From the IMG/VR virus record IMGVR_UViG_3300009716_000731, positions 32,001 through 96,000 of that record: a stretch of 64,000 nt of DNA. One strand, written 5' to 3'. The position numbers and the translations under genes are program-made. This document shows positions 755-36,483 of this stretch, in pieces. Position 1 is the stretch's first letter, and every line of letters starts with the position of its first letter. Under the pieces are notes generated by a model, which worked only from the letters and a program-made list of their open reading frames with translations, made no database searches and was not told the DNA's origin. Source of the stretch: a virus. Lineage: Duplodnaviria > Caudoviricetes.

Positions 755-832
755 TGATCCCACCAGGATTCGAACCCGATAACGCTGGGTTTAGAAGCCA
801 GCTCACCACCAAGGTGATTACGTTGAAGGACC
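755..832 (-). tRNA. Atypical tRNA-like gene; anticodon CUA (amber) if folded symmetrically, otherwise a degenerate tRNA-Arg(UCU)
   Basis: GGTCCTT...TCACC-TTGGT-GGTGA, GCTGG-CTTCTAAAC-CCAGC, GGTTCGAATCC T-loop, 3' TGGGATCA. TATCTTTG promoter element at 851-858. Confidence 0.7.
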
Positions 833-1424: not shown

Positions 1425-2444
1425 ATGAAGTATATTAAAACAGTTGATGAGTATTCTATAAATGAAGAATTGGAATTCAAAATGAGTTGGAGAGGATTTT
1501 TATTAGGTATATGTATTGTTGCTGCTTATAGGCACTATTTTCCTGCTAAGAAAAATCTCACTTTAGGTGAAATGAATAGAATTGTTGCTGATGTTGATAA
1601 CAAACCCACATTAAAAGAAAAAATTGCTATTAATGCTATAAAAAATAGCTTAATATCAGATCTTAAGCAAGATAAGAAAATCTCAGATGATGAAAGAAAG
1701 AAGCTAATAGATGGTATTAATACTATACCTTTTGTCTTAGTTGATACTGATACTATCCAACTAATTACTGGAAGGGATGCACTTGGTTGTTATTTTGGTT
1801 ACTTGGATAATTTCAAGAATCTAATGACAGTAATATTAGTTGATAGGGAAAGAATTAAATTAGGTACTGATTTTGATGAGGTTATACTACATGAGTTAAG
1901 ACATTTAGTTGATGATTTATTGGTTGATGGTAGAAAAGAATACAGTGAATTATCAAATATTGTTGATATATTAGACAAGGATATTGTTTTGAGGAATGAA
2001 GCAGGAGAGAGAAAGATAAGAAAAAAGATAAATGATTATATTGACGTAATGGTTAAAAAAACCGGTAGAGAAAATGATCCAAAGACTCAGGAAATTGGTC
2101 AAAGACTAAAAGATCAATATTTTGATATTATTTTTTTAGATAAAGATAAAATGAATTATTTAACATCATCATCGGAGATATATGCAAGATTTCATGGATT
2201 AAAAAGATGGATGATAAAAAATGGTTATCTAAAAGATATGAATAGTGAAATAACACAAGATATTATTGTTAAAATGATGCAAAATGAGCAATTGTTGGAT
2301 GTAAATATTATCAGAAAAGACTTCTTCCAATTATTATTTTATATGGATGTTGATTTTATAGGTAAAACGAAAAGTGATGTATCTAAACTAAACTCAATTG
2401 TAACAAATTATAGAGATTATATATCAAATGAAAAACCCGCTTAA
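1425..2444 (+). CDS. Putative zinc metalloprotease with N-terminal CTS-like tag
   Basis: HELRH (HExxH) plus downstream EIYAR; starts MKYIKTVDEYSINEE; hydrophobic segment near N-terminus. Confidence 0.65.
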   Translation: MKYIKTVDEYSINEELEFKMSWRGFLLGICIVAAYRHYFPAKKNLTLGEMNRIVADVDNKPTLKEKIAINAIKNSLISDLKQDKKISDDERKKLIDGINTIPFVLVDTDTIQLITGRDALGCYFGYLDNFKNLMTVILVDRERIKLGTDFDEVILHELRHLVDDLLVDGRKEYSELSNIVDILDKDIVLRNEAGERKIRKKINDYIDVMVKKTGRENDPKTQEIGQRLKDQYFDIIFLDKDKMNYLTSSSEIYARFHGLKRWMIKNGYLKDMNSEITQDIIVKMMQNEQLLDVNIIRKDFFQLLFYMDVDFIGKTKSDVSKLNSIVTNYRDYISNEKPA

Positions 2445-2457
2445 AAGCGGATTTTTT
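2431..2457. terminator. Bidirectional intrinsic terminator
   Basis: AAAAAC-CCGC-TTAAAA-GCGG-ATTTTTT between convergent genes. Confidence 0.6.
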
Positions 2458-3700
2458 CTTTTATAGCAGGCATATAAATTTCAATCAAATCGATCAATTC
2501 TTTTTTACATTCTAAAGTCAATGATTTACTTTTATTTTGATTCATCAAAATCATAAATGAACTAACAACTTTATTAAACTTAAAAGCTTCTGTATAGTCA
2601 AATATAGTTTTCTTAAATACTTCTATGTCAATAGTTTCCTCACCAGTTTTTTCCAACCAAGTTTTCATTCGATTAATAAATCGTCTAATACCAATTATAT
2701 TTTCATCTGACCAAGAACCACCATCAAAATAGTGACCAATAAACATCAAGTAAAATCTAATTTCATCTGAGTCATAACCATCCAAACTTACTACATTATC
2801 TTTTGACTTAGACATTTTTTCACCATTATTCAATATCATTCCTTGGTGTATCAATTTAGTAATAGGTTCCTCAAAATCAATAAAACCTATATCATACAAA
2901 AACATTGTAATAAATCTAATGTAGATCAAATGCATACAAGCATGTTCTGATCCACCAATATACAAATCTGCTGGTTTTGGTTTAATACCTTTCATCAAAC
3001 AATAAACAATAGTATAGATAGAACTATCTACAAAAGTGTCCATTGTATCGGTCTCACCTTCAATTGGAATAGGACAACCCCAATTTCTTTGTCTTGATAC
3101 GCACCAATCATGTTGATTTTCCAACCAATTTCTTTGAGCTTTTATCGTTGATTCCGGAAAATCGATTTTATCCAAATTAGCAATCAATCTTTCTTTATAA
3201 TCAGTAATTCTAAAATACCATTGATTCAAAATTTTCTTTTCAACTTGATTTGAGCATCTATCACATTTACCATCTTTTACTTGCTCTCTTGCCAAGACGG
3301 TTTCGCAACTATTACAAAAGTCAACTTCACCATCTTTTTTATAAGCCAATCCTTTATCATACAATTGCTTAAACAACCACTGTGTCCATTTAATGTATTC
3401 AGCATCTGAAGTAATCAACATTTCCTCATATTGAGTATTCATGTTTTTCATTTGCTGTCTAAAGTTTTCTATATTTTCATAGGTAACTTCTCTTGGATCC
3501 CTACCTACTTTTTTCGCATAGTTTTCTGCAGGCAATCCAAAAGCATCATAACCAAAAGGTTGAAAAACGTTAAATCCTTGATAACGCTTATATCTACAAT
3601 AACTATCTACAATAGCATAGTTATACCAATGACCACAATGCAATCCTGACCCTGATGGGTAAGGAAACATTGGAGTTATATACAAATTTTTTTGATCCAT
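2441..3700 (-). CDS. leuS: Minimal leucyl-tRNA synthetase-like protein (class Ia)
   Basis: MFPYPSG..LHCGH (HIGH), GYDAFGLPAENYA, DWCVSRQRNWG, ETDTMDTF, YIGGSEHA, KMSKS; only 419 aa. Confidence 0.9.
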   Translation of the reverse strand: MDQKNLYITPMFPYPSGSGLHCGHWYNYAIVDSYCRYKRYQGFNVFQPFGYDAFGLPAENYAKKVGRDPREVTYENIENFRQQMKNMNTQYEEMLITSDAEYIKWTQWLFKQLYDKGLAYKKDGEVDFCNSCETVLAREQVKDGKCDRCSNQVEKKILNQWYFRITDYKERLIANLDKIDFPESTIKAQRNWLENQHDWCVSRQRNWGCPIPIEGETDTMDTFVDSSIYTIVYCLMKGIKPKPADLYIGGSEHACMHLIYIRFITMFLYDIGFIDFEEPITKLIHQGMILNNGEKMSKSKDNVVSLDGYDSDEIRFYLMFIGHYFDGGSWSDENIIGIRRFINRMKTWLEKTGEETIDIEVFKKTIFDYTEAFKFNKVVSSFMILMNQNKSKSLTLECKKELIDLIEIYMPAIKEKIRF

Positions 3701-3909
3701 TTTTTTACTTTATCTTTAAGTGTTGGTTTTAGTAAAGTTTGTAGCTTTTTATCTCTTTTGTCTATCTTTTCTTGTTGCTTACAATCGTCACATATACTTG
3801 GTCCGCTTACAAACCAAATTTCTCCTGTTTGGTTATTCATTTTAATATCTTCTCTGGTAGAAGGTGTAAATCTTTTACTACATTTCTCACAATCAAAATC
3901 AATCATCAT
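3676..3909 (-). CDS. Small Zn-finger protein with RDKKL motif
   Basis: CEKC...CDDC; KRDKKLQTLL near C-terminus. Confidence 0.6.
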   Translation of the reverse strand: MMIDFDCEKCSKRFTPSTREDIKMNNQTGEIWFVSGPSICDDCKQQEKIDKRDKKLQTLLKPTLKDKVKKWIKKICI

Positions 3910-4358
3910 TATATTGTGTATTTTTTTGTCATATCTGTACCAGCAAATTGTTCAATTTTGCGAATAGCAGATGATGATATATGTTCATATTCTTTATCAC
4001 AGGTTAGATAAATAACATTTATATCTTTCTTAAAATCACTTGTAAATCTAAATTGATTTACTTCATAATCTAAGTCAGTACCGTTTCGTAATCCTCTAAT
4101 TATAATTACTTTACAACCTTCTTTCTCATAATCTTCAACAAGTTCATGTAGAAATTTATTGTAAGTTATAACTGGTCGATTGAGTCGCTTTTCTATTTCT
4201 TTTGGGTCTTCTCTTTCGGGGTAGTTTTTATCTGGATTTATACCAATAGCAACTATGACATTTCCTTTACCAAAAATGCGCTCAGCTTTTTCAATGATGT
4301 TTAGGTGTCCAATATGCATTTTGTTAAATGAGCCGGGATAAATTGCTATTGTTCTCAT
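3909..4358 (-). CDS. coaD: Phosphopantetheine adenylyltransferase
   Basis: AIYPGSF..MHIGH, IIRGLR..DLDYE, ISSSAIR. Confidence 0.9.
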   Translation of the reverse strand: MRTIAIYPGSFNKMHIGHLNIIEKAERIFGKGNVIVAIGINPDKNYPEREDPKEIEKRLNRPVITYNKFLHELVEDYEKEGCKVIIIRGLRNGTDLDYEVNQFRFTSDFKKDINVIYLTCDKEYEHISSSAIRKIEQFAGTDMTKKYTI

Positions 4359-4443
4359 AATTCTTTTTGTATTATATAATTAAAATAATGATGTCCTCTA
4401 TGAAAAGGTTGATAATTATAACAAAATTAAGAAAAAATTTTTA

Positions 4444-5376
4444 CTATTCCAAACTTGCTAAGTATCTTTCAGCATCTAATGCTGCCATACAACCAGTACC
4501 TGCCGCAGTAATAGCTTGTCTATAAACATTATCTGCTACGTCACCGGCTGCAAAAACACCTGGTATATTAGTTTTAGTTGTTCCTTTTTCAGTAACGATA
4601 TATCCAGTTGAATCTAATGTTAAATAATCCTTAAATATATCTGTATTTGGCTTATGACCAATTGCTAAAAAGAATCCTGTTGCTGGTATCTCAGTTACTT
4701 CTTCTGTTAAGGTATTTTTAACTCTGATTTTAGTAACAACTTGACCGTCTCCAACAACTTCTTCGGTTACCGTGTTCATAAGTATTTCAATGTTTTCCGT
4801 ATTTTTAACTCTATCAACCATAATTTTAGAAGCTCTAAAATCACTTCTTACTAACATAGTTACTTTTTTACATATTTTAGATAAATAGTGTGCTTCTTCA
4901 CAAGCTGAGTCTCCAGCACCAACTACTACAACATTTTGATTTCTATAAAAGAATCCATCACAGATAGCACATGCAGAAACACCACCACCTAATTCTAAGT
5001 ATTTTTGTTCTCCTTTTACACCAGAGTATTTTGCAGTAGCTCCAGTTGATATAATTACGGTATCAGCTTCGATTTGATGATCGTGATTGATTGTAATTAT
5101 TTTTTTATCTGTTGAAAAATCTACTTTCGTTACCAAATTATTTCGTATGTCTGTACCAAATCTTTTAGCTTGTTCTTCCATGTTATTCATAAGATCAATA
5201 CCTTTTATACCATTTATAAAAGCTGGGTAATTTTCAACATCATTGGTTGTTGTTAGCTGTCCACCAGGTTGCATTCCTTGATATAAAACAGGTTTCATAT
5301 TTGCTCTTGCTGCATAAATTGCAGCGGTATACCCTGCAGGTCCTGATCCTATAATAATACATTTAACTTTTTCCAT
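4444..5376 (-). CDS. trxB: Thioredoxin reductase
   Basis: GSGPAG, GGQLTTT, CAICD, GAGDSA, FAAGDV, YRQAITAAG. Confidence 0.97.
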   Translation of the reverse strand: MEKVKCIIIGSGPAGYTAAIYAARANMKPVLYQGMQPGGQLTTTNDVENYPAFINGIKGIDLMNNMEEQAKRFGTDIRNNLVTKVDFSTDKKIITINHDHQIEADTVIISTGATAKYSGVKGEQKYLELGGGVSACAICDGFFYRNQNVVVVGAGDSACEEAHYLSKICKKVTMLVRSDFRASKIMVDRVKNTENIEILMNTVTEEVVGDGQVVTKIRVKNTLTEEVTEIPATGFFLAIGHKPNTDIFKDYLTLDSTGYIVTEKGTTKTNIPGVFAAGDVADNVYRQAITAAGTGCMAALDAERYLASLE

Positions 5377-6096: not shown

Positions 6097-6124
6097 AAAG
6101 AGAGACTTTCGTCTCTCTTTTTTT
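6095..6124. terminator. Bidirectional intrinsic terminator
   Basis: AAAAAGAGAGAC-TTTC-GTCTCTCTTTTTT. Confidence 0.8.
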
Positions 6125-6977
6125 ATTCTACTCCTTGCATTAGCTCAAATGCTTGTTCTTTTATTTGTTTTTGTAATAACTCCATAGCTCTTGCTAATCT
6201 TGTTAAACCAATTCCAGCACCATATCTTGGGAAAAAGTCGTGTGATAAAAAGTCATTTAATTCTTTAACAACTCTTTCTTCTCCAAATAAGTCAAATAGT
6301 TTTTTAGCGTAACCACCATTTTCGATAGTATAGAACATTTCTCTCATTTTCTCAACATCACAACTTCTTTCAGCAGAACCAATAGTTTCTTGACCGAATA
6401 AAATAACATCTACCTTATTAAAAATGTTATCTTGGTTGTGTTTCATATTCCAAAATGGATTTGTTCTAATTGGAAAGTTTTGTAAAGAAACACAATGTCC
6501 TAATTCTTTCCACATTCTTGCTTCGTGTTCGTTCTCAAGAATTTCCACTCCACCATATTCTTGACATAAATCATCATAGTTTCTTTCTACTGGTGAACCA
6601 AAACCTAAATAAACTAAAAGTTCATGTTCTAATTTTAGAAGATCTTCCATTGTTCCTTTTGACTCAAACTCAAACATAGGAAAAATAGTTTCATGTCTTC
6701 CTTCGATAGGATTTTTTTCAGCACGGTAAGATGTAGTTATACAAAATACTCCTTCCCATTCTGGATTTTTTAATAATTCATGTTCTAACCACATTTGTCC
6801 TGTTTGTGGTAAAGGCCATACTTGATTGTTCCATTGATAAGTTTCAACAGAGTGAGGATTTTCACAAGCTGCTAAGATTGATAATCTTGGTTGAGCTGGA
6901 ACCTCGATGAAATTTTTTGACAAAAAAAATTCTCTTAGTTTCTGAACTAGAGAATGATACATTAAAGTGTTACGCAT
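6123..6977 (-). CDS. Class II aaRS catalytic-domain-only protein (AsnRS/AspRS-like; no anticodon-binding domain)
   Basis: LREFF...FIEV (motif 1), LPQTGQMWLE, SYRAE...RH..IFPMFEFE (motif 2), GAGIGLTRL (motif 3). Start is uncertain (6977 or 7016). Confidence 0.85.
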   Translation of the reverse strand: MRNTLMYHSLVQKLREFFLSKNFIEVPAQPRLSILAACENPHSVETYQWNNQVWPLPQTGQMWLEHELLKNPEWEGVFCITTSYRAEKNPIEGRHETIFPMFEFESKGTMEDLLKLEHELLVYLGFGSPVERNYDDLCQEYGGVEILENEHEARMWKELGHCVSLQNFPIRTNPFWNMKHNQDNIFNKVDVILFGQETIGSAERSCDVEKMREMFYTIENGGYAKKLFDLFGEERVVKELNDFLSHDFFPRYGAGIGLTRLARAMELLQKQIKEQAFELMQGVE

Positions 6978-7084
6978 AAGAAATTTTTTTTTTGAGTCAA
7001 TTAAAAATTGTCTCAAATGTTAGTTATTATTAAATTCTAGATATATATAAAAAAATTACCTTTTGTTTAGGTAATTTTTATTTT

Positions 7085-33841: not shown

Positions 33842-35185
33842 ATGAATGCAGAAAAGACAATTTCAGATTTTTTATCCAATGAGTACAAAGAGTTTGCTAT
33901 GTACTCAATCGAAGGTCGTGCAATACCTTCTGTTATAGATGGATTTAAGCCAACACATAGAAAAATTATACATATCTCTAATCAAATTTGGAAAACAGGT
34001 AATGAGAAAAATCTAAAAGTTTTTCAATTAGCAGGTAAAGTAGCTTCTGATGCTTTTTATCATCACGGTAATACATCATTAGAAAATGCTATTGTAACGA
34101 TGGCTCAAAAGTTCAAAAACAATGCTCCTTTATTAGAAGAGATTGGACAGTTTGGATCTTTAAGAAGTCCACAACCAGGTGCAGCACGTTATATTGGAAC
34201 TAAGTTATCTAACAATTTTAGGTTTATCTATAAAGACTTTGATCTTTTAGAATATAAAGAAGAAGAAGGTGAATCAATTGAGCCTCATTACTTTTTACCT
34301 ATTATTCCAACTATCTTATTAAATGGTTCTTCTGGTATTGCAGTAGGATTCTCATCTAATATCTTAAATAGAGACATTAAAGACATTATAGATTCTTGTA
34401 CTAAGGTTTTAGCGGGAAAGAAACAATCGTTGATAAAACCTTCTCTAAATGAGTTTACTGGTGAGTTTATACAAGATAAAGAGAATAATAAAAGATGGAT
34501 AATAAGAGGTAGATTCCAAAAGGTAAATACATCTACGGTTAAAATATTAGAGTTACCACCTTCTATGACTTATGAGAAATATGAAGAGATATTAGATAAG
34601 TTAGTTGATAATAAAGATATAGTTTCCTATGATGATAATTGTAAAGATAATATAGATTATACAATTAAGTTTCAGAGAAGTGTTTTAGAGAAGTTAGATG
34701 ATACAGCTTTAATAAAGCTATTGAAGTTAGAAGAATCATCAACTGAGATATTTACTTCATTAGATGAGAGAGGTAAATTAAAAATATTTGAAACTGCGGA
34801 AGAGATTATAGAATATTTTACTAACTTTAGATTAACTTATTATATTAAGAGAAAAGAGTATTTATTAGATAAATTGAATAAAGAGCTAAAAATACTAAGT
34901 AATCGTGGAAGATTCATAAAGGCTATTTTAGATGAGAAAATTAAAATTAATAATGTTGCTAAATCAGAAATAATTGAGTCTATAAAGTCATTAGGTTTAG
35001 ATTTAGTAGATGATTCATATGATTACTTATTAAGAATGCCAATTTACTCTTTAACTAAAGAGCTTTTTGAAAAACTAAAAGAAGATTTTACAAAGAAAAA
35101 GCAAGAAATAAAAGAGTTAGAAGAAACAGATCCTAAAAATATGTATTTAGAGGATCTTCAAGAACTGAAAAAAAGATATAAATAA
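33842..35185 (+). CDS. Type II DNA topoisomerase medium subunit (T4 gp52 / GyrA-ParC N-terminal-like)
   Basis: RAIPSVIDGFKPTHRK, YHHG, GQFG, AARY catalytic Tyr, GIAVGF. Confidence 0.95.
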   Translation: MNAEKTISDFLSNEYKEFAMYSIEGRAIPSVIDGFKPTHRKIIHISNQIWKTGNEKNLKVFQLAGKVASDAFYHHGNTSLENAIVTMAQKFKNNAPLLEEIGQFGSLRSPQPGAARYIGTKLSNNFRFIYKDFDLLEYKEEEGESIEPHYFLPIIPTILLNGSSGIAVGFSSNILNRDIKDIIDSCTKVLAGKKQSLIKPSLNEFTGEFIQDKENNKRWIIRGRFQKVNTSTVKILELPPSMTYEKYEEILDKLVDNKDIVSYDDNCKDNIDYTIKFQRSVLEKLDDTALIKLLKLEESSTEIFTSLDERGKLKIFETAEEIIEYFTNFRLTYYIKRKEYLLDKLNKELKILSNRGRFIKAILDEKIKINNVAKSEIIESIKSLGLDLVDDSYDYLLRMPIYSLTKELFEKLKEDFTKKKQEIKELEETDPKNMYLEDLQELKKRYK

Positions 35186-35232
35186 TTGTTTATATCTAAA
35201 TAAAACATTAATTTTGTAGAAAATAATTAAAA

Positions 35233-36483
35233 ATGAAACAACAACTTGTAGATTTGATACATAGCAAAGCGCCTGGTTCTAAACCACTTTTCTTGGTGGT
35301 TAGAGGTTCTCATGCTTATGGTACAAATATAGAAACATCAGACGTCGATTATGCTGGTGTATTTATCCAGTCATTAGATGATATATTGGGTAGTAAATAT
35401 GTAGAGCAAGTAAATGATGATAAGAATGATATTGTTATTTATGAAATAAGACGATTTTTAGAGCTTTTAGGTAAAAACAATCCAACTGTATTAGAACTTC
35501 TTAATACACCAGAGGATTGTATTATTTATAAAGATCCTGTTTTTGATATGATTTTAGAAAATAGAGATCAATTTATTACTAAAGTTTGTGCTAGATCGTT
35601 TGGTGGTTATGCTACTACTCAAATTAATAAATCAAAAGGACTTAATAAGAAACAAAACTGGGAGAAAGATAAAGTAACTCGTAAAGATTTGCTCGACTTC
35701 TGTTATGTTATTGAAGGAGAAAAGTCTATACCTTGGAAAGTATGGAATAATGGCACTTATGAAGAAAAGTTTATAGGTGCTGTAAATATTCCACACGCTA
35801 GAGATATGTATGCTTTATTTTATGATATAAATGCTTATCATGCTTTTAGTGAATCAGTTCCACAAAATGTTAGAGAAGCACATATTAAACTTAGAAAGGA
35901 TGCTGATTTACCAGTAGGTTTAGGTTACAAAGGTTTAGTTAAGCTTGGTGATGTTCTTGAGAAGTCTGATGAAAATGGTATGTTGGATATTAGTACAGAA
36001 GAACTAAAAAATTACATTTCTGGTTCTATTGTGAATTCTAATCAACTACGTCTTTCAAGTATTCCAAAAGGTGAGACTCCAATTTGTACAATTTTCTATA
36101 ACAAAGATGGTTACTCTGAGCATTGTAAAGACTTTAGAGAATATGAGGAATGGTTAGAGAAAAGAAACACTCAAAGATGGGTTGATGTTAAATCACACGG
36201 TCAACAAATCGACGGTAAAAATATGCTTCATTGTGTAAGATTAGTTGATATGTCTCGTGAGATTGCAGAAGGTAAAGGAATTATAGTAAGACGACCTAAT
36301 GCTGAGCAACTTCTTGCGATTAGAAGAGGTGAAGTTGATCTTCAATCTTTGATTGATTATGTTGAAAAAGAGATTGTTGAAGTCGATAGAATTTTCAAAG
36401 AGTCTAATCTACCTGATAAAGTATCAGAAGAGTTTATAAATGATTTGTTAATTAAAATTAGAAAAATATCATATGGTTTTTAG
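35233..36483 (+). CDS. Pol-beta family nucleotidyltransferase (RlaP/NrdC.11-like)
   Basis: RGSHAYGT...SDVDYAGVF, NNPTVLELL, DGKNMLHCVRL. Confidence 0.88.
   Translation: MKQQLVDLIHSKAPGSKPLFLVVRGSHAYGTNIETSDVDYAGVFIQSLDDILGSKYVEQVNDDKNDIVIYEIRRFLELLGKNNPTVLELLNTPEDCIIYKDPVFDMILENRDQFITKVCARSFGGYATTQINKSKGLNKKQNWEKDKVTRKDLLDFCYVIEGEKSIPWKVWNNGTYEEKFIGAVNIPHARDMYALFYDINAYHAFSESVPQNVREAHIKLRKDADLPVGLGYKGLVKLGDVLEKSDENGMLDISTEELKNYISGSIVNSNQLRLSSIPKGETPICTIFYNKDGYSEHCKDFREYEEWLEKRNTQRWVDVKSHGQQIDGKNMLHCVRLVDMSREIAEGKGIIVRRPNAEQLLAIRRGEVDLQSLIDYVEKEIVEVDRIFKESNLPDKVSEEFINDLLIKIRKISYGF

Follow-up and report, generated by a model that had tools for sequence, protein, structure and literature searches.

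A megaphage leucyl-tRNA synthetase without editing and C-terminal domains, and the case that it still charges tRNA-Leu

Can a leucyl-tRNA synthetase (LeuRS) that has shed its editing domain, its C-terminal domain and several smaller modules still provide a virus with leucyl-tRNA? The question is raised by a gene at positions 2441-3700 (minus strand) of the window studied here, a stretch of 64,000 nucleotides that spans positions 32001-96000 of an IMG/VR record of viral DNA, 151 kb long (IMGVR_UViG_3300009716_000731; CheckV completeness 26%, GC content 25-30%). The interval is filled by one intact open reading frame (ORF; P0001) of 419 codons with an ATG start and a TAA stop, here called mini-LeuRS. 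We consider it probable that its product is a working, editing-free LeuRS of a Mahaphage/Lak-type megaphage that still charges tRNA-Leu. The original prediction, made from the sequence alone, had placed all LeuRS signature motifs within these 419 residues, and this is borne out by the ORF, which lies on the minus strand, by alignment to the Escherichia coli enzyme and by NCBIfam and PDB matches.

Pfam searches assign the 419-amino acid (aa) protein to class I synthetase families, and a profile search against NCBIfam identifies it more closely. The bacterial LeuRS model TIGR00396 (leuS_bact) is matched with an E value of 6e-112 and 375.3 bits, whereas MetRS (141 bits), IleRS and ValRS models all score at or below 141. 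The leuS_bact match consists of four collinear blocks that cover model positions 28-221, 412-428, 484-573 and 604-755 of 843. LeuRS chains in the PDB match at E values of 1e-80 to 1e-66. Among solved structures, that of Mycoplasma mobile LeuRS (3ZIU), which has no CP1, is the closest, and the full-length enzymes from Neisseria, Thermus and E. coli come next. The resemblance of 2441-3700 to LeuRS is far beyond chance.

Deletion boundaries were defined by alignment to E. coli K-12 LeuRS (L006), relative to which about 34 residues are absent from the N-terminus; all coordinates in this paragraph are on the minus strand. The HIGH signature reads HCGH (residues 21-24; 3629-3640) and is H..GH in all family members. 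The first zinc knuckle (ZN1, CxxC...CxxC, residues 129-149; 3254-3316) is retained, a feature that, like the HCGH form of the signature, the original prediction did not include. At the junction left by CP1, the editing domain (WLENQHDW, residues 192-199; 3104-3127), the five residues LENQH stand for E. coli 224-418 in the sequence QRNW-LENQ-HDWCVSRQR, and the CP1 profile (PF13603) finds no match in the protein. At the next junction (PIPIEGETDT, residues 210-219; 3044-3073), which reads WGCPIP-IEG-ETDTMDTF, IEG replaces E. coli 434-485, the ZN2/CP2-like insert that bears a second CxxC...CxxC knuckle in several relatives. At the third (QGMIL-NNGE with the KMSKS loop, residues 286-299; 2804-2845), NNGE stands for E. 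coli 571-618 directly before KMSKS (residues 295-299). The segment lost here is the Leu-specific domain, delimited as A571-M617 in E. coli LeuRS (PMC3643597). It had been claimed that the flanking motifs run straight into each other at these three points: CP1, ZN2/CP2 and the Leu-specific domain are indeed deleted, while linkers of three to five residues remain at the joins. The helical (anticodon-binding-type) bundle (approximately residues 341-419; 2444-2680) carries three small deletions and is truncated near E. coli residue 770. Its helices run to residue 416, and the protein ends within the bundle, at IYMPAIKEKIRF, so that the C-terminal domain, which binds the tRNA elbow, is absent. A custom hidden Markov model (HMM) of that domain matches every longer LeuRS with a C-terminal tail in our alignment and no mini-family member. 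The short bundle and the absent C-terminal domain, both noticed earlier, are thus confirmed by alignment and HMM.

The deletions leave a catalytic core with the Rossmann fold, together with ZN1, the KMSKS/stem-contact region and a helical bundle of reduced length. Since the Rossmann fold is whole and these other parts are kept, the label 'urzyme-like' that had been applied to the protein does not fit. Catalytic residues and those of the leucine and adenylate pocket match LeuRS: the columns M40, Y43, D80, F493, S496, Y499, E532, H533, H537 and Q566-M568 (E. coli numbering) are invariant, as is KMSKS.

The in-frame domain deletions are under selection, as had been proposed. Ratios of nonsynonymous to synonymous substitution (dN/dS; Nei-Gojobori) are 0.03-0.11 among family pairs with unsaturated dS, far from the value near 1 that relaxed selection among homologs, the outcome named as contrary to the proposal, would give. 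Among members that are 56-90% identical, all three deletion junctions are constant in length and almost constant in sequence. An AlphaFold2 model built from a 46-row alignment is compact and confident, with a mean predicted local distance difference test score (pLDDT) of 92.2 and a predicted template modelling (pTM) score of 0.91. Foldseek places 3ZIU first (query TM score 0.93), followed by LeuRS-tRNA complexes (0.85-0.89).

A 68%-identical copy of mini-LeuRS is encoded in LR745206.1, a phage record of 634,780 bp. The four largest complete phage genomes all fall within the 'Mahaphage' clade, which includes the Lak phages and has Bacteroidetes as predicted hosts (Al-Shayeb et al. 2020, PMC7162821). 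The 151-kb record is a fragment of a Mahaphage/Lak-type megaphage. All 120 protein-database matches listed are 388-450 aa long and 76-99% identical; some lie on contigs of 635-649 kb, which carry 88%-identical copies. In IMG/VR we identified 33 related loci (56-89% identity) on viral contigs of up to 519 kb, and they share the architecture described above. One is a short fragment; the other 32 were examined. One of these has a broken frame and 31 are intact: 29 encode 398-431 aa, another 442 aa, and the last 487 aa with an unrelated tail. A 68-residue tail in one member (L039) was considered as a possible C-terminal domain and rejected, as the custom HMM does not match it. In two members (L028 and L041) the four ZN1 cysteines are lost, and in a third (L043:1441-2637, 398 aa) the whole ZN1 module is absent.

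Among 1.8 billion cluster representatives searched, there is one other full-length representative of mini size (429 aa). The same search revealed a graded series of shortened LeuRS: a 530-aa form with a remnant mini-CP1, forms of 569-580 aa that lack CP1 and keep the C-terminal domain, and, at 611-650 aa, proteins built on the M. mobile plan. Two of these forms were looked up, the one of 530 aa and one of 569 aa, and both lie on phage-like contigs. In a maximum-likelihood tree the mini family (398-426 aa) is one clade (support of 100 in the Shimodaira-Hasegawa-like approximate likelihood-ratio test, SH-aLRT) on a stem branch of 0.56. The 569-580-aa forms are its sister group, and the 46 cellular LeuRS in the tree, one of them from Bacteroidota, branch elsewhere. 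In a pattern scan of species-representative genomes there was no close cellular relative among the matches listed, which reach at most 54% identity over the N-terminal half and come from many phyla. A cellular donor was rejected on this ground and because the family stands apart in the tree. Thus, given a phage-only clade on a long stem and no close cellular relative, the family is phage-specific and old, not a recent capture from a host. We found no published description of it in a full-text literature search that included Al-Shayeb 2020 and the recoding preprint (bioRxiv 10.1101/2021.08.26.457843).

The 530-aa form (P0124; L190:2488-4080) is 57% identical to mini-LeuRS and shares its other deletions, but its miniature CP1 still has the editing motifs, one threonine-rich and one of the form GTG..VP..D. 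Its place in the tree is within the mini clade, beside L041; CP1 was therefore lost more than once or partly regained.

The codon usage of the gene bears on its function. Mini-LeuRS encodes its 26 leucines with 25 TTG codons and one TTA, whereas genome-wide TTG makes up 9% and TTA 62% of leucine codons (p 1.6e-25). Other amino acids are near genome usage, the next strongest deviation being phenylalanine (25 of 25 TTT, p 6e-4), and GC content at third codon positions is typical outside the leucine codons. No other ORF exceeds a 31% share of TTG among its leucine codons. The single-codon pattern recurs in most family members, among them L015-L019, L024, L025, L027, L039 and LR745206 (18 of 18 leucines in the last), and the L033 member uses CTG for 19 of 20 leucines and is flanked by a gene for tRNA-Leu(CAG). 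Leucine itself is also less frequent in the shared core, at 6.2% compared with 9.0% in cellular LeuRS.

A blind scan of all ORFs of LR745206 for missing residues identified seven synthetase-type genes with zero cognate residues (loci L048-L079): IleRS, ValRS, MetRS, AspRS, AsnRS, an ArgRS-like protein and a PheS-related ligase (in LR745206.1, 382047-384254, plus strand; 34378-35709, minus; L012:619-1992, minus; 336580-337944, plus; 390522-391700, plus; 391720-392898, plus; 613818-614897, minus). The IleRS has 735 aa, among which 65 isoleucines are expected; the ValRS has 443 aa; the MetRS gene has a GTG start and no ATG codon. Several synthetase genes of this phage score above their own equivalog cut-offs. 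We found no published account of synthetases that lack their own cognate residue. Two truncated cores encoded near mini-LeuRS are not depleted in this way: an AsnRS/AspRS-like core (window 6123-7016, minus strand; 297 aa, 17 Asn) and a GluRS-like core (G000:C1:27018-27854, minus strand; 278 aa, 18 Glu). Because they lack the cognate depletion, unlike translational synthetases, they fit paralogs without a role in translation, such as AsnA or GluQRS. Most simply, the depleted synthetases would be built to be made while their own product is scarce. Synthesis during scarcity makes sense only if that product is the cognate aminoacyl-tRNA, and the codon signature would then tie mini-LeuRS to charging.

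Two further observations concern the same genomes. The 443-aa ValRS-like protein of LR745206.1 (L009:763-2094, minus strand) also lacks CP1 and the C-terminal region, while the IleRS of that genome keeps CP1; miniaturization is therefore not confined to LeuRS. In the record from which the window is taken, outside the window itself, an ORF of 1125 aa (G000:C1:103807-107184, minus strand) contains no histidine or cysteine, where about 17 and about 14, respectively, are expected.

tRNA genes around mini-LeuRS point in the same direction as its codons. Genes for tRNA-Leu directly adjoin mini-LeuRS in L027, L033 (seven in a row), L034, L037/L038 and L039. The regions flanking these loci contain 76 called tRNA genes, 27 of them for tRNA-Leu, compared with 5 of 59 in the whole of LR745206, and nearly all of the flanking tRNA-Leu have A73. 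Three divergent megaphage lineages encode, beside normal long-arm tRNA-Leu, a trio of short-arm, class-I-like tRNA-Leu with the anticodons UAA, CAA and UAG, next to or near mini-LeuRS (L033:4791-5165; L037:3934-4639; L067:9081-10005, which is LR745206 389081-390005). These are 74-76 nt long and have A73, a D arm of class-I type and a variable loop of 4-5 nt. Pairing of G1 with U72 in the phage tRNA-Leu was considered as a phage-specific identity mark and rejected, as a Prolixibacteraceae (Bacteroidota) genome has it in tRNA-Leu(UAA/CAA). It also occurs in other phage tRNAs. The pair is a Bacteroidota trait and not a phage invention.

On this evidence we favor a charging enzyme, and its predicted mode of action would be as follows. 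Leucine would be activated in a canonical LeuRS pocket and then transferred to tRNA-Leu. Because the elbow-binding C-terminal domain is gone, the tRNA would be recognized mainly by its acceptor end (A73). There would be no post-transfer proofreading, and the enzyme's error rate, like its activity and tRNA specificity, is a prediction. The resulting Leu-tRNA would be supplied to phage translation during infection. With UUG at 25 of 26 leucine positions, translation of the mRNA would not draw on the UUA/CUN-reading Leu-tRNA pools on which the other phage genes depend; the codon choice may thus be a bootstrap or insulation device.

Two of the losses have proven precedent. The absence of CP1 from M. 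mobile LeuRS, cited in the original prediction, is documented, and that enzyme charges tRNA without either CP1 or the Leu-specific domain. Both are also dispensable in E. coli chimeras, where the GKDG linker of the M. mobile protein can substitute for the Leu-specific domain (PMC3643597). A CP1 acting in trans, which it had been suggested to look for, was not found: LeuRS-type CP1 (PF13603) occurs nowhere outside IleRS, either in the record that contains the window or in four relatives whose genomes are complete or nearly so. An editing-free enzyme is therefore plausible.

A broader version of this proposal is possible, and we offer it tentatively. The phage may carry a charging system that bootstraps itself, with mini-LeuRS as its leucine module and the acceptor end (A73) as the sole part of the tRNA that the enzyme reads. 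Such reading could allow it to charge long-arm and short-arm tRNA-Leu alike, and perhaps a tRNA-like element with a CUA anticodon (described below), while a single codon insulates its own mRNA. UUG-only insulation would parallel the sister synthetases that contain none of their own amino acid.

Several points weigh against a charging role. Mini-LeuRS misses the leuS_bact equivalog cut-off (375.3 compared with 548.4 bits). The single-codon pattern is absent in four members (L028, L037, L041 and L043), which have mixed leucine usage. No tRNA-Leu gene was found in the 151-kb record or in five close-relative fragments. Deletion of the C-terminal domain abolishes aminoacylation in Thermus thermophilus and E. 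coli LeuRS, Pyrococcus horikoshii LeuRS without it has negligible leucylation, and aspartate substitutions within it impair Mycobacterium tuberculosis LeuRS (PMC3561953). Its loss, unlike the two above, has no proven precedent, and no substitute domain was found. Cellular paralogs provide a further caution: Sulfolobaceae LeuRS-I forms the adenylate and binds tRNA without being able to charge it, and haloarchaeal LeuRS2 has very low activity (PMC9437257).

These paralogs and the missing C-terminal domain, which the LeuRS tested from bacteria and archaea need in order to aminoacylate tRNA (PMC3561953), are grounds for regarding mini-LeuRS as a repurposed paralog. It would make leucyl adenylate (Leu-AMP) and might bind tRNA-Leu without supplying translation, acting as a leucine or tRNA sensor, as a diadenosine polyphosphate (ApnA) synthase or as a leucine donor to a non-tRNA acceptor. 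Its long stem branch and the truncated AsnRS-like and GluRS-like cores nearby are in keeping with such a role, and adenylate or ApnA synthesis had been proposed for the protein at the outset. We nevertheless consider repurposing unlikely, and less likely than charging of tRNA-Leu. The leucine signature matches the cognate avoidance of the LR745206 synthetase genes and is missing from those truncated paralogs; linkage to tRNA-Leu arrays recurs across lineages; and the helical bundle and the KMSKS linker are retained, as in the active M. mobile enzyme.

The loss of the C-terminal domain would need compensation (PMC3561953), and this could come from another protein. In that case mini-LeuRS would be part of a multi-protein LeuRS, and a second protein, encoded by the phage or by its host, would bring tRNA binding or editing in trans; the split LeuRS of Aquifex and free-standing editing factors offer parallels. 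Megaphages encode hundreds of proteins of unknown function among which a partner might be sought. Our searches make such a partnership quite improbable. The only LeuRS-type CP1 across the four complete or near-complete genomes is that of IleRS, the C-terminal-domain HMM has no match in LR745206 or in the window's own record, and comparison of related loci revealed no protein-coding neighbor of mini-LeuRS conserved beyond its close sub-clade.

The window's record and five fragments of that sub-clade contain only tRNA-Met, tRNA-Cys and the CUA-anticodon tRNA-like elements downstream of mini-LeuRS. In the window such an element lies at 755-832 (minus strand), 1.6 kb downstream of the gene, with relatives at L015:8403-8481, L088:1501-1568 and in L089. 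It has an 8-nt connector, a 5-bp D-like hairpin and A73 as its discriminator. The window and L015 copies are 92% identical and show compensatory changes in the D-hairpin (UCACC/GGUGA compared with UUGCC/GGCAA); shorter versions without this hairpin lie downstream of mini-LeuRS in the L017 and L020 records. LeuRS does not read the anticodon. Together with the position of the element and its A73, this allows the idea that mini-LeuRS charges an amber-suppressor-like tRNA(CUA), and so contributes to reading through TAG with leucine. We judge this to be very doubtful. Adjacency is limited to the close sub-clade, and elsewhere ordinary tRNA-Leu genes adjoin the family. Neither ARAGORN nor Rfam calls the element as a tRNA. 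Recoding of TAG did not show in this fragment: coding density hardly changes when TAG is read as sense, and the in-frame TAGs that could be aligned lie opposite TAA stops in relatives or in antisense frames. TAG recodings in surveyed phages are to glutamine only (bioRxiv 10.1101/2021.08.26.457843).

Although about half of the ancestral protein is missing, a decaying, functionless remnant of a captured LeuRS is scarcely credible in view of the low dN/dS, the intact frames in 31 of 32 loci, the conserved junctions, the confident fold and the extreme synonymous constraint on leucine codons.

A G+C-rich hairpin with T runs on both strands (2431-2456) straddles the mini-LeuRS stop codon and is terminator-like for both mini-LeuRS and the convergent ORF at 1425-2444. 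On the upstream side, a 77-aa ORF on the same strand overlaps the mini-LeuRS start by 25 nt. Further upstream, also on the same strand (window 3909-5376, minus), are genes for a thioredoxin-reductase-like flavoprotein (310 aa) and a cytidylyltransferase-like protein (149 aa); the latter is also conserved upstream of the gene in LR745206.

If the preferred reading is correct and the enzyme charges tRNA-Leu, it would be about 200 residues smaller than any other natural LeuRS and a natural counter-example to the requirement of bacterial LeuRS for a C-terminal domain. A well-folded natural protein would then be available to test a long-standing question, namely what minimum of a class Ia synthetase is enough to charge tRNA specifically. 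The single-codon leucines, together with the cognate-free synthetases of a relative, point to a design principle by which megaphages may restart or replace host tRNA charging when aminoacyl-tRNA is scarce, and so bear on how megaphages take over translation. A compact, editing-free synthetase paired with short tRNAs could also interest builders of orthogonal translation systems.

Among known systems, the designed LeuAC urzyme, an excerpt of about 130 aa from P. horikoshii LeuRS, likewise keeps the class I signatures after removal of CP1 and the anticodon-binding domain. Aminoacyl-tRNA synthetase urzymes are excerpts of about 120-130 aa, minimal fragments for ATP and amino-acid binding with no connective-peptide modules or anticodon-binding domain (PMC9026127). 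LeuAC is one third the size of the phage protein and lacks the zinc knuckle, the second Rossmann half in its native context and the helical bundle, whereas the phage protein is a natural, complete core. The minimal MetRS core (about 500 aa; e.g. Aquifex aeolicus, 2CSX) follows the same class Ia layout, in which a Rossmann fold, a zinc knuckle, KMSKS and a helical bundle are present and an editing domain is not, and MetRS ranks second among the families matched. In sequence, in pocket residues and by its top scores, however, the phage protein is a LeuRS (375 compared with 141 bits). LeuRS-I of Sulfolobaceae and LeuRS2 of haloarchaea are additional copies of LeuRS whose editing is damaged or absent, whose C-termini are altered and whose role is uncertain (PMC9437257). 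They differ in being cellular and archaeal-type or full-length, with no comparable miniaturization, tRNA-Leu linkage or reported single-codon signature. In engineered E. coli LeuRS (the MmLinker and GKDG chimeras) short linkers replace CP1 and the Leu-specific domain and charging is retained, as proposed for the phage enzyme; these constructs keep the C-terminal domain, which the phage enzyme naturally lacks (PMC3643597, PMC3561953).

The closest counterpart is M. mobile LeuRS (3ZIU, 637 aa), a natural enzyme called 'exceptionally small'. Both proteins are of bacterial type, with CP1 reduced to a short linker (KEEIDGKIT in M. mobile, PMC3643597; LENQH in the phage protein) and the Leu-specific domain to a tetrapeptide before KMSKS (GKDG and NNGE, respectively). 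The phage protein is 218 residues shorter: it has no N-terminal extension, no ZN2/CP2-like insert (about 80 aa) and no C-terminal tRNA-binding domain at all, and its helical bundle is incomplete. Nothing in it corresponds to residues 276-355 and 551-637 of 3ZIU, whereas the 611-650-aa proteins of the M. mobile plan keep these parts. It is also viral, and its host presumably keeps a full LeuRS. We predict that the phage protein works most like the minimal LeuRS of M. mobile, reduced well beyond it.

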